From the IMG/VR virus record IMGVR_UViG_2695420382_000015: 4,737 bases of DNA; one strand, written 5' to 3'. The position numbers and the translations under genes are program-made. This document shows positions 2,690 to 4,737 of this stretch, piece after piece. Position 1 is the stretch's first letter. Every line of letters begins with the position of its first letter. This stretch comes from a virus (lineage: Duplodnaviria; Heunggongvirae; Uroviricota; Caudoviricetes). The notes beneath the pieces are model-generated. The model did no database searches and was not told where the DNA came from. It saw only the letters and a program-made list of their open reading frames with translations.

Positions 2690-2976
2690 GCCTTAATAAC
2701 CCCCTCTTTCAGCCAGATAACCTGCGTTCTCGCCATACCTTCCAGCGCGCATTCTTTTGCATACTCAGCATCGACAAAATATGTGCGGCGGTCGATTTCG
2801 TCGTGACAGGCAGAACATGCAATGGTGGCAATCAGGTCTGGCGGTTTGATACCGGTACCGCACAATCCAGCCAGCCGGATATGTGCCAGTACTGACGTTT
2901 CAGGATTGCCATTACATACGCCAGGGATTCTTACCTGGCATTCCCGACCACGCGCTGCTTTTCTCAAATCAGCCAT
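2686..2976 (-). CDS. ybcO: YbcO-type (DUF1364) Cys-rich putative nuclease of the lambdoid nin region, 96 aa
   Basis: Translation [96 protein letters not shown]. Start ATG at 2976-2974 with GGAGGA 5 nt upstream (cctcc at 2981-2985 on the + strand); the ORF track's longer start at 3015 is rejected. Multiple Cys pairs suggest metal binding. Confidence 0.87.
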
Positions 2977-3139
2977 GATTCCTCCTTGCTGCCAGTCGCA
3001 ACCATTTTTTATCAACCAGGCTAGCGGTATATCCGAGCAGTGTTGGTATTTCGGATGGCTTCAGCTCAGGCTTACGCTTACGACGATTTGATACTCTGTA
3101 GATGTGCCCGTTCATGACACGAATAAGCGGTGTAGCCAT
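2969..3139 (-). CDS. ninE: NinE-family small basic protein (56 aa)
   Basis: Hand translation gives [59 protein letters not shown] at 3139-3137 shares one base with the ybcN stop (TAATG), and the 3' end overlaps the ybcO start by 8 nt. Absent from the ORF track because it is short. Confidence 0.8.
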   Translation of the reverse strand: MATPLIRVMNGHIYRVSNRRKRKPELKPSEIPTLLGYTASLVDKKWLRLAARRNHG

Positions 3140-3594
3140 TACGCCTCCTGCTTATCGCGCAGCTGCTGGTATTCACAGCTCTGCGGAATTGTCAGGTGGC
3201 AGCCGATATTCATCGCCCAGGCTTCGACTTTGCACAGGAAGATGTACATCTCGCCGGTTTCCAGCTCTGACGTATGGCGGAGGGATTGGACGGTGGTGAC
3301 CTCGCCGGACACGACATCTACACGGTCTTTGCTTTCGTAGCCGAGATAGGTGTGCTTCATCGCGTCTTTGACCCACTCAGGCGTAGCGAAGGTCTTGCCG
3401 CGGGCGATGAGATATTCGCTGATCTCCGTGTACCACATGTGGCTGAGCGCGTTCTGCGACAGGCTGCGCTTCTCGCGCCACGGCTTAACCTGCAGGCGTA
3501 AGCATTGCCCGGCATCCAGCAATGGCTGAATCTGCTGGCCGATGGCCGCGAAGTTACCGCGATGGAGTTTGATGCCGTCTACTGGCAGAGTCAT
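3139..3594 (-). CDS. ybcN: YbcN / NinB-family recombination-associated DNA-binding protein (151 aa)
   Basis: Translation MTLPVDGIKLHRGNFAAIGQQIQPLLDAGQCLRLQVKPWREKRSLSQNALSHMWYTEISEYL... The RSLSQNALSHMW core resembles the NinB (orf family) motif. ATG at 3594-3592 with GGGAGG 4-5 nt upstream. Confidence 0.88.
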   Translation of the reverse strand: MTLPVDGIKLHRGNFAAIGQQIQPLLDAGQCLRLQVKPWREKRSLSQNALSHMWYTEISEYLIARGKTFATPEWVKDAMKHTYLGYESKDRVDVVSGEVTTVQSLRHTSELETGEMYIFLCKVEAWAMNIGCHLTIPQSCEYQQLRDKQEA

Positions 3595-3686
3595 ACGGCC
3601 TCCCTAACGGAAACCGCAGAATGCAGAAAATCGCAGGTGCATTTCTGCATCTGTGACAAGGTGATGAGTTCAGATTGTGGTCGCAT
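3591..3686 (-). CDS. ylcH: Small ORF (31 aa) in the position of DLP12 ylcH, translationally coupled to ybcN
   Basis: Minus-strand ORF MRPQSELITLSQMQKCTCDFLHSAVSVREAV with AAGGGGA upstream of ATG (3686-3684) and a TGA stop overlapping the ybcN ATG (ATGA). Assignment to ylcH rests on position and size; I do not recall the reference sequence exactly. Confidence 0.5.
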   Translation of the reverse strand: MRPQSELITLSQMQKCTCDFLHSAVSVREAV

Positions 3687-3705
3687 TTAAGTCCCCTTAA
3701 ATGCG
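3682..3705 (-). promoter_or_regulatory. Hairpin (9 bp stem, 6-nt loop) enclosing the Shine-Dalgarno and start codon of the ylcH-like ORF
   Basis: Arms cgcatttaa (3682-3690) and ttaaatgcg (3697-3705) are perfect complements. On the minus-strand RNA the loop GGGGAC carries the SD and the ATG lies in the 3' arm. No U tract on either side, so it is not a classical terminator. Confidence 0.25.
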
Positions 3706-3792
3706 CAGAAGTCACCGGAGTTGTTCAGGCTCCGATGAGAGGATTATGGCGGATTGATTACGATAAATCAAAACTATCTTGAAGCCAAAACA

Positions 3793-3822
3793 GTGATCTT
3801 CGCTTTAAAAACCTTGTATACT
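3793..3822 (+). promoter_or_regulatory. Candidate sigma70-type promoter for the A+T-rich cassette (-10-like TATACT at 3817-3822; weak -35-like GTGATC at 3793-3798)
   Basis: The only reasonable -10 match upstream of the cassette's first gene on the + strand; the -35 element is poor. Purely sequence-pattern based. Confidence 0.2.
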
Positions 3823-3858
3823 TTCACCTAATCACAGCCAGAACTATGGATCTAACCA

Positions 3859-4236
3859 ATGACCAACAAAGAAAACAAAGATAAATATATTAACAAGTTC
3901 AAGAAAGAGCTTTCAAAATATATACAACCAACTGCTGGAGTGGACATTCAATTATTTAACTCTAAGGATGGTGGTGGTGTAATTAAAGCCACTTTGAATA
4001 GAAGTGGAAAAAGAAAATCATCTATTGCTGGTAATTTTACTAAATTAGGTGAGGCAATTACCTCGAGTGGGCAGAGGGTTTTTGGTGGTGATCTATCAAA
4101 TGTGAATTTTTACGGAACAAATACGATTTTTGATGGAGATACAATATTTTTAATTAAATCACCTGATTCAGAGGAGTGGTCATCACAAAAAGCTTCCAAA
4201 GACGTAGAGGGCATCGTATTTGGAGGGAAAAAATGA
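3859..4236 (+). CDS. Hypothetical protein, 125 aa, Lys/Gly-rich, predicted soluble; first gene of a two-gene A+T-rich cassette
   Basis: Uninterrupted ORF with an in-frame TAA two codons upstream of the ATG at 3859 and a weak GGA 8 nt upstream. Codon usage and composition differ strongly from the flanking phage genes. No family recognised. Stop TGA (4234-4236) overlaps the next gene's ATG. Confidence 0.55.
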   Translation: MTNKENKDKYINKFKKELSKYIQPTAGVDIQLFNSKDGGGVIKATLNRSGKRKSSIAGNFTKLGEAITSSGQRVFGGDLSNVNFYGTNTIFDGDTIFLIKSPDSEEWSSQKASKDVEGIVFGGKK

Positions 4237-4661
4237 TTAACATTACTACTAAGGATGGCACTCAAGTCAGTGGTGAAGTAAGAGATCTAGTAATTCTTCT
4301 TGAAACTGATGGAAAAACGGTGTCTGATTATTTGCAGCCAATCCCTCCCAAAAAAGATACACACTGGAGCATGATTTTCATTCCGGTAGCAATTTATATA
4401 CTACTTAATCTTGTATACATTATTGCTCACCCATTATTTCCTGAAAAATATCTAAAAACATCAACATCTATATTTCTATTCATTTCCTTCATATTAAGTG
4501 CAATAGTAGCATATTTTGTTTTCCATAAGCATAAATCTGCCACTCTATCCATATGCAGCTTAGTGTTCTTAGTGTTAATTGTAGGTGCTAACGTAGGGTT
4601 TATCAGTTACAGCGACCTAACACAAAAAGCGACGCAAAAATTAGATAGTTTGTCTAAATAA
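4233..4661 (+). CDS. Hypothetical small membrane protein, 142 aa: about 65-residue soluble N-terminal domain followed by three predicted transmembrane helices
   Basis: ATG at 4233-4235 with GGAGG at 4222-4226 (6-nt spacer), overlapping the upstream stop (ATGA). Hydrophobic segments WSMIFIPVAIYILLNLVYIIA, IFLFISFILSAIVAYFVF and ICSLVFLVLIVGANVGFISY are separated by short charged loops. The ORF track's 4176 start lacks an RBS and runs inside the upstream gene. Confidence 0.6.
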   Translation: MINITTKDGTQVSGEVRDLVILLETDGKTVSDYLQPIPPKKDTHWSMIFIPVAIYILLNLVYIIAHPLFPEKYLKTSTSIFLFISFILSAIVAYFVFHKHKSATLSICSLVFLVLIVGANVGFISYSDLTQKATQKLDSLSK

Positions 4662-4668
4662 TTATGTT

Positions 4669-4689
4669 GCCATGCGAAGTATGCATGGC
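4669..4689 (+). repeat. Inverted repeat (7 bp stem gccatgc/gcatggc, 7-nt loop) just 3' of the cassette's second gene
   Basis: Read directly; no U tract follows, so terminator function is uncertain. A second short palindrome ccatttaaaatgg lies at 4703-4715. Confidence 0.2.
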
Positions 4690-4737
4690 TGCATGTCTGC
4701 CTTCCATTTAAAATGGGCTAAGACCTATAACCCTAAA

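Follow-up and report, generated by a model that had tools for sequence, protein, structure and literature searches.

A sharp module junction beside the nin block of an 82/DLP12-type lambdoid prophage and the A+T-rich two-gene cassette that adjoins it

Where does the conserved nin block of a lambdoid prophage end, and what are the A+T-rich genes that lie beyond it on the opposite strand? The question is raised by IMG/VR record IMGVR_UViG_2695420382_000015, a stretch of 4,737 nucleotides (hereafter the window, to which all positions refer unless stated otherwise) that represents a segment of an 82/DLP12-type lambdoid prophage in reversed orientation relative to the phage map. A preliminary description of the window had proposed a junction between conserved phage genes and inserted cargo, with a compositional boundary spanning 3687-3860. 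Based on our analysis, 3687-3858 is most probably (at a probability of roughly 0.8) the spacer between two divergently oriented genes and forms the left border of a hypervariable slot for accessory genes, with an A+T-rich, mobile moron of ~1 kb on its right side. This moron, here called the cassette, carries two genes on the + strand, orfA (3859-4236) and orfB (4233-4661). This slot, in lambdoid prophages of the 82/DLP12 type, is flanked by the replication gene P on one side and by the nin operon (ylcH-ybcN-ninE-ybcO-rusA-ylcG-Q) on the other.

The junction between the conserved nin block and the variable cargo was located by homology, and the exact breakpoint is 3771|3772. Megablast of 3100-4737 returned matches in 3028 of 5426 complete E. 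coli genomes, and the cassette was covered in only 46 of them; nearly all other E. coli matches end at query position 673-674, which corresponds to 3772-3773 of the window, including those of K-12 MG1655, BL21(DE3) and O157:H7. Lambdoid phages, phage 82 included, lose homology at the same point, so that the segment is not contiguous with DLP12 or the other reference prophages. In a seven-way alignment, the invariant stretch ends in AAATCAA and is followed by unrelated sequence with five different right flanks; K-12, O157, Eco-15, TD225-C4 and phage 82 all diverge at 3771|3772. A 32-bp core (3703-3734), invariant among these seven sequences, was used to search IMG/VR and identified 120 loci, from which 114 placements together with the window gave an anchored set of 115 sequences. 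Within this set, the majority-base frequency is 0.82-1.0 up to 3771, with 0.82-0.88 over 3735-3771, versus ~0.37, the random level, from 3773; A3771 is identical in 115/115 sequences, and the base at 3772 is shared by 71%. The right flanks constitute 62 alleles, sequences being assigned to one allele when 80% or more of the bases agree across 300 nt or more of the 600 nt next to the junction, and all of them start at the junction. A breakpoint at ~3700-3760 had been proposed in the preliminary description: the junction itself was found, and its position had to be moved to 3771|3772. It is a well-known kind of phage mosaic or moron junction, though unusually clean.

The 85 bp directly left of the breakpoint (3687-3771) are a strongly conserved part of the nin module, in which a leftward promoter-like element and two hairpins are predicted. 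The promoter scan placed a sigma-70-like promoter of the nin block at 3743-3771 on the - strand, with a -35 box TTGATT (3771-3766), a 17-nt spacer and a -10 box CATAAT (3748-3743), and the same two hexamers carry putative -35 and -10 labels in the phage 82 record X92588. Among 68 distinct versions, 63 retain the -35 hexamer and 63 the -10 hexamer, whereas conservation within the spacer falls to 40-82% at 3751-3754 and 3760-3764; variants of the -10 box include AATAAT, TATAAT, CAATAT and TATGAT. Hexamers conserved so far above the spacer between them present the pattern expected of a promoter. The predicted -35 box ends exactly at 3771|3772, and selection on this hexamer would account for conservation that stops exactly at its upstream edge. 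The boundary would then be razor-sharp because the sequence upstream of the box is unconstrained.

Downstream of these hexamers, a 10-bp inverted repeat, GTCACCGGAG-N9-CTCCGATGAG, occupies 3711-3739 on the - strand, as identified from X92588, the alignment and a census of its arms. It is labelled 'possible regulator-binding site' in X92588, and its position coincides with the predicted start of leftward transcription or is slightly downstream of it. Its commonest variant, CTCCGATGAC, forms 10/10 pairs as RNA on the - strand only (U-G wobble), and the version in the window has two mismatches; no T-run follows the stem, and the intrinsic-terminator scan makes no call there. The second hairpin, at 3682-3705 on the - strand, is a perfect inverted repeat with a 10-bp stem and a GGGA loop; the loop presents a Shine-Dalgarno-like sequence of ylcH, and the 3' arm includes the start codon of this gene. 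Across the 115 sequences, the stem haplotypes AUUUAAG/CUUAAAU, CUAAACG/CGUUUAUG and CUUUGAG/CUCAAAG are each self-complementary. This covariation suggests that the stem-loop is a conserved element of the nin leader, which may act in translation or in mRNA stability. Its GGGA loop is constant across the 115 sequences and is inverted in one version. In leftward order, this conserved non-coding block of the nin module contains the sigma-70-like promoter, the 10-bp inverted repeat at the predicted start and the covarying hairpin that covers the ribosome-binding site of ylcH.

Some observations concern the junction motif itself. In one allele (L123), a tandem array of the octamer ACAATCAA stands directly right of the junction and repeats the motif AATCAA; slippage or repeated recombination at the junction may have produced it. 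In a locus from E. coli TD225-C4 (L006, positions 3001-3075 of that locus), the conserved junction block occurs without an adjacent ybcN, beside a NADAR / PRTase-like / MT-A70 gene set downstream of P, and the block can therefore persist after nin gene loss or rearrangement. The motif AATCAA was also considered as an IHF site and rejected on inspection of the sequence, the flanking bases being a misfit to WATCAANNNNTTR on both strands.

The base composition changes over the same region. In 200-nt windows, G+C is 0.59-0.60 at 3301-3600, 0.445 at 3601-3800 and 0.33 at 3801-4000; by segment, it amounts to 0.577 for ybcN (0.76 at third codon positions, GC3), 0.439 for the spacer at 3595-3858, 0.341 for orfA (GC3 0.26) and 0.336 for orfB (GC3 0.28). 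A two-segment likelihood scan of 2700-4737 placed the change point at 3753, ~20 bp from the homology junction, with a log-likelihood ratio of 39.2 versus a maximum of 6.8 in 300 permutations; the likelihood peak is a broad plateau at ~3640-3780. The sharp G+C boundary noted in the preliminary description is therefore real, as is the A+T-rich right side with unrecognised proteins on the opposite strand, encoded by the open reading frames (ORFs) at 3859-4236 and 4233-4661. The span given there for the boundary also comes close to the true intergenic region of 172 bp (3687-3858), because a ylcH/orf33-like ORF of 31 codons fills 3591-3686 on the - strand. The left side, by contrast, is not 'balanced' as had been stated: the ybcN allele is G+C-rich and is itself a swapped-in patch.

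This ybcN allele (3139-3594, - strand) heads the conserved nin block as its first large gene and is a member of the Orf/NinB family. It matches Pfam NinB with 24.0 bits against a cut-off of 23.8 (E = 3.6e-5) and is annotated as 'YbcN family protein' in near-identical genomes; YbcN has been handled as an Orf-family member (PMC4118853). Its identity is ~79% to the K-12 DLP12 allele and ~94% to alleles of Enterobacter phages (vB_EclS_CobraSix). Compared with another cassette-bearing prophage, the window shows 7-14 differences per 50 nt at ~3150-3630 and is nearly identical in the remainder. The replaced patch thus comprises ybcN and the 3' half of ylcH, differs by 22-28% from the allele that other cassette-bearing prophages carry in an otherwise near-identical sequence and, judged from these alignments, is a discrete allelic replacement. 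The stop codon of the ylcH-like ORF overlaps the ybcN start (ATGA), and homologous small ORFs are annotated in phage 82 (orf33), K-12, O157 and BH100N. Since two foreign segments of opposite composition, the ybcN patch and the cassette, adjoin at this locus, the contrast between the two sides is exaggerated.

The view of the locus as a moron or cargo insertion point was borne out by the distribution of the cassette, which is A+T-rich, antisense to the flanking genes and recurrent as a unit across lambdoid backgrounds. The two results that would have refuted the preliminary description, a G+C profile with no significant shift and contiguity of the segment in reference prophages, were both looked for, and neither was obtained. 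It is present in 48 of the 5426 complete E. coli genomes (46 near-identical copies and two at 72% identity) and missing from >98% of the genomes with a nin block (~3028). Its place was the same in each of the lambdoid prophages examined, namely the interval that separates the replication genes from the nin region, and it is always antisense. A Klebsiella-like prophage, in which a DUF1367 gene replaces ybcN, carries it in this slot and orientation; in Enterobacter prophages it is joined to other immunity modules and to nin variants with NinG, RusA or metallophosphatase; and a fourth background has it beside DndB and colicin-like genes. When deposited phage genomes were searched by tblastn with orfA, no match was obtained; in the collections searched, the cassette was seen only in prophages and IMG/VR viral contigs.

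The same cassette and junction were found with two ybcN alleles that differ by 22-28%, the switch lying at ~3630, inside the conserved leader (BH100N has the ordinary allele). Experiments have shown that lambdoid phages take up prophage DNA through relaxed homologous recombination (PMC3945230), and the two findings combined suggest a two-step model. Cargo would first arrive through rare illegitimate events and would then spread via homologous crossovers in the conserved flanks, with selection on the nin promoter fixing the visible boundary.

Site-specific insertion by a recombinase or homing mechanism, perhaps integron-like, at the palindrome TTGATT-N6-AATCAA (3754-3771) is another conceivable origin of the junction, and we consider it improbable. 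Such a mechanism would readily explain why 62 different sequences join at one nucleotide next to a conserved palindrome, and both the serine-recombinase genes found in some alleles, such as ybcK, and the tandem ACAATCAA array that starts from the junction in one allele are in line with it. However, no recombinase is present in or beside the slot among the annotated genes of this prophage, and the cassette flanks show no repeated core and no significant terminal direct or inverted repeats, only short A+T-rich matches at chance level, so that no att-like core was seen. The boundary coincides instead with the upstream edge of the conserved -35 hexamer, as selection on a promoter would give, and the same cassette has been re-assorted through a crossover inside the conserved flank. 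The compositional step could also be thought to result mainly from the swapped-in, G+C-rich, Enterobacter-type ybcN, with the A+T-rich side being ordinary early-region sequence. The G+C of ybcN (0.577, GC3 0.76) is indeed above the ~0.50 of the rest of the nin block, and the gene lies in a discrete patch (~3150-3630) whose nearest relatives are Enterobacter phage alleles. Yet the cassette, at 0.34, is far below every other nin-block coding segment to its left, it is absent from >98% of nin-block genomes, and the same junction and cassette occur with the ordinary ybcN allele in BH100N. The ybcN swap is thus refuted as the sole cause and remains a contributor to the sharpness of the step; as the main explanation of the locus, it is highly improbable. 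The edge of an accessory slot, with a mobile moron on its right side, remains the reading that we prefer.

On the cassette side of the junction, the remaining 87 bp of the spacer (3772-3858, + strand, G+C 0.38) form a cassette-specific upstream region with a candidate promoter and a weak Shine-Dalgarno-like GGA at 3848-3850. The candidate consists of a -35-like GTGATC (3793-3798), an 18-nt spacer and a -10 box TATACT (3817-3822), with a consensus score of 8/12. Upstream of orfA, the four cassette lineages compared (E. coli, Enterobacter, DY612 and L144) have diverged heavily and share only a few motifs, namely TATA(C/G)T 36-39 nt before the ATG, GA(T/C)C at the -35 position and GGA 8-9 nt before the ATG; in two distant lineages TGA precedes the hexamer, which is the extended -10 form. 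Given this conserved TATA(C/G)T footprint, 3817-3822 is the most likely -10 box, and a cassette promoter within the spacer is plausible, with 3793-3822 as its best candidate. The expectation that the spacer should hold the cassette promoter thus applies to its right 87 bp, which belong to the cassette, and fails for the left 85 bp, which belong to the nin module. From this candidate, the cassette would be transcribed starting at ~3829 in the repressed prophage; it points against phage early (pR) transcription and would be silenced by antisense read-through in lytic growth. The conserved + strand TTGATT at 3754-3759 was tried as a -35 box shared by the cargo of different alleles and rejected, since -10-like hexamers at 16-18 nt are not enriched: the mean score is 2.92 versus 2.69 for the control in alleles with a + strand first ORF, with none at 5 or above, and the other alleles are likewise unenriched. 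Rfam returned no family on either strand at E values up to 1.

At the other end of the cassette, 8 nt past the orfB stop, a stem-loop GCCATGC-N7-GCATGGC (4669-4689) is a candidate 3' end or insulator of the cassette. Its fold z-score is -3.0 on the + strand and -2.7 on the - strand, and in the 72%-identical DY612 cassette the stem is kept and the loop changed. On the - strand, the scan detected a terminator-like hairpin followed by ATTTTAAATG at 4715-4733, directly downstream of the P stop, which lies just beyond the window end. In cassette-bearing prophages, P lacks its usual stop codon (+ strand TCA changed to TCG; L001 10641-10668, equivalent to ~4740-4767 of the window). P runs ~9 extra codons into the cargo, and the cargo module reaches the equivalent of ~4767, the canonical P stop position; the right-hand junction would accordingly be placed, from these alignments, at the canonical P stop.

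The two cargo genes encode small proteins, and the orfB start overlaps the orfA stop by 4 nt. OrfA (125 aa, WP_000182282) belongs to the uncharacterised family phrog_18061, and OrfB (142 aa, WP_000608370) to phrog_16940; the only full-length matches of either protein are to PHROG families of unknown function. The AlphaFold2 (AF2) prediction for OrfB shows a small N-terminal domain followed by three transmembrane helices (44-68, 71-100 and 103-141), and the N-terminal domain is predicted to be cytoplasmic by the positive-inside rule. The OrfA model is a compact alpha/beta domain of low confidence; based on this model and on the lack of a match to Pfam or to membrane families, OrfA is read as soluble. 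Compared with the DY612 copy of 72% identity, the window gives ratios of nonsynonymous to synonymous substitution rates (dN/dS) of 0.088 (orfA) and 0.097 (orfB). Both genes are under purifying selection, and their products are real proteins that would act as a pair.

Homology searches placed these proteins in a wider family. Word-indexed searches retrieved 13 clusters for orfA and 17 for orfB, all from Enterobacteriaceae where the source names an organism, and an exhaustive profile search for orfA extended this to 111 clusters (50% identity) of proteins of ~125 aa that share a motif. Four distant orfA homologues (28-35% identity) were located on contigs, and in 4/4 the next gene overlaps or abuts. 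The partner proteins have 125-128 aa, with a short N-terminal domain and three hydrophobic helices, and match the orfB family in hhalign with E = 2e-5. The two-gene arrangement is kept in distantly related bacteria. One of these distant pairs lies in a prophage (integrase, lysozyme, holin), and others in islands with toxin-antitoxin genes (Gp49/HTH, Xre-MbcA). Among 80 scanned members of the orfA family there is no common Pfam family, and NCBIfam and PADLOC scans of the distant homologues were also empty; a PDB sequence search with the 80-member profile gave only a chance hit (E = 0.039). In Pfam, orfB has only sub-threshold, generic membrane hits and orfA none, and PADLOC-DB 2.0.0 has no family for either at E values up to 1. 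A literature search by the two protein accessions and the PHROG identifiers found no paper. Several distant members of the orfA family are fused to extra domains (P0104, 447 aa; P0083, P0116, P0132 and P0136, 219-243 aa), and one scanned member has an HNH endonuclease domain (Pfam E = 1.3e-12).

What the pair does can be addressed from its arrangement. Antisense orientation, an upstream region of its own and moron character fit a function exerted during lysogeny rather than in lytic growth. Morons have been defined by a differing GC content and their own promoter and terminator, with expression from repressed prophages (PMC3594210), and accessory loci are described as typically expressed in lysogeny (PMC7067206). 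OrfA and OrfB would act jointly at the inner membrane. By analogy with known prophage systems, orfAB may be a superinfection-exclusion or abortive-infection module, a suggestion that we put forward tentatively. The wider proposal, in which OrfA and OrfB represent an undescribed two-gene family in prophages and islands of distant bacteria and a new prophage-encoded, membrane-acting anti-phage or exclusion system, is more speculative still.

A toxin-antitoxin or addiction pair, with OrfB as membrane toxin and OrfA as soluble antidote, or a lysogenic conversion that alters the envelope for reasons unrelated to phages, would also suit a small membrane protein and a small soluble protein whose translation is coupled through a 4-nt overlap. 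The distant homologues in islands beside Gp49/HTH and Xre-MbcA genes are consistent with it, as is the failure of every defence model to match orfA or orfB; on the other hand, neither gene resembles any known toxin-antitoxin family in Pfam or NCBIfam, and we regard this explanation as unlikely. Toxin-antitoxin and envelope-conversion roles are nevertheless the main alternatives to exclusion or abortive infection, and the data do not discriminate between these functions. In one E. coli genome (NZ_CP025753.1, strain CV839-06), an IS1A element within the matched region splits the cassette match in two; it lies in or next to the cassette and has no bearing on addiction.

The contents of the slot elsewhere provide a context for the exclusion or abortive-infection proposal. 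We scanned the two ORFs nearest the junction in the 61 other alleles. G+C is below 0.45 in the right flank of 43 of the 62 alleles; among the 62, the first ORF runs the same way as the nin genes in 47 and is antisense in 15. The Pfam families detected include DNA polymerase III theta-like proteins (HolE-theta; 13), DUF551 (4), antirepressor domains, recombinases, EmrE and YbcL, together with an AraC regulator, Abi_alpha, NACHT, NADAR with PRTase-CE, and hydrolases. PADLOC models matched in a few slot alleles (PDC-S47, PRTase type III-A, HEC-07, PDC-M42C, PDC-M28A and PDC-S60). The slot is a general accessory slot with a defence component.

Several points weigh against the interpretation given here and limit its different parts. 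The invariance of 3703-3734 in the IMG/VR set arises by construction, this stretch being the search pattern, and it is the conservation of positions elsewhere that is informative; the right junction falls beyond the window end, and its placement is approximate. With regard to the cassette as an autonomous unit, the + strand of 3772-3858 contains no site above the standard sigma-70 scan threshold, the best candidate scoring only 8/12, and the stem-loop at 4669-4689 has no T-run (U-tract) on the + strand and is not a canonical intrinsic terminator. With regard to function, orfA and orfB have no match in Pfam, NCBIfam or PADLOC, and structure comparison gave no informative fold match. Only a minority of slot alleles match defence models, and location alone is therefore weak evidence for a defence role of orfAB.

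The remainder of the window shows the expected prophage setting. According to the ORF list, the - strand carries quuD, ylcG, rusA, ybcO, ninE and ybcN; the + strand carries an intact ompC/nmpC-type porin gene, and the right end consists of the two unannotated ORFs described above. In near-identical E. coli chromosomes, the phage-order context is repressor, cro-like gene, YdaT-domain gene, O, P, two opposite-strand hypothetical genes and ybcN, followed by ninE, ybcO, rusA, ylcG, Q, an opposite-strand porin gene and the lysis genes. A repressor-like XRE gene is located ~2.6 kb from the cassette, past P, O and the YdaT-domain and HTH (cro-position) genes. The porin gene (390-1532, + strand, G+C 0.43), located between Q and the lysis genes, is a second antisense cargo gene of the window (region 1-1720), and its counterpart in K-12 DLP12 is broken by IS5. 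The sequence before it is very A+T-rich, with G+C of 0.25-0.31 over 1-500, and a run of undetermined bases (N) at ~130-170 gives rise to X residues when ORFs 66-203 and 77-223 are translated.

As an example of genome organization, the junction is textbook lambdoid mosaicism and brings no conceptual change. Its practical value lies in a slot whose left border is fixed to the nucleotide and marked by a 32-bp core, through which lambdoid accessory genes, some with matches to defence models, can be catalogued in a simple way. The cassette itself is a conserved two-gene operon under purifying selection, unannotated in every library searched and cheap to test for exclusion or abortive infection. If orfAB proved to be a new membrane-acting system, the P-nin slot with its core would offer a practical starting point in the search for further accessory and defence genes of the lambdoid group.

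Compared with known systems, the cassette resembles the lambdoid morons (the HK97/HK022 concept; for example HK97 gene 15 and lambda bor and lom) in being extra DNA at a fixed position with deviant G+C, a putatively autonomous transcription unit of its own orientation that spreads horizontally (PMC3594210). It differs from them in that its promoter and terminator are predicted, its proteins belong to no characterised moron family, and its slot holds 62 alleles among 115 sequences. The ren-tR2-ninB interval of lambda occupies the same map position (P to Orf/NinB) and likewise combines a non-essential gene, ren ('Ren-like exclusion protein'), with a transcription signal. In lambda, however, this signal is the canonical intrinsic terminator tR2 (AGGCCTGC...GCAGGCC then TTTTTATTT), whereas prophages of the 82/DLP12 type show a promoter-like block there, with a hairpin that no U-tract follows; in the corresponding gap of the window, the 3711-3739 repeat lacks a U-run, and a weaker terminator-like site follows the P stop at 4733-4715.

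RexA and RexB of lambda are a soluble sensor and a polytopic membrane effector that cause abortive infection and are expressed from the prophage. The likeness to OrfA and OrfB is one of architecture only: both systems pair a small soluble with a small multi-pass membrane protein in one prophage unit, and the cassette, too, may be expressed while the lytic genes are off. OrfA is half the size of RexA, the two pairs have no sequence or profile similarity (Pfam, PHROG), and rexA and rexB lie in the immunity region with the repressor, whereas the cassette lies between P and ybcN. The closest counterpart of the junction itself is the 5' boundary of the nin region in DLP12 and phage 82 (orf33-orf151, X92588), which has the same TTGATT, CATAAT and inverted repeat, followed by orf33/ylcH and then ybcN. 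In K-12 DLP12, the slot beyond this boundary holds ybcK-ybcL-ybcM, co-oriented with the nin genes; here it holds an antisense two-gene cassette.

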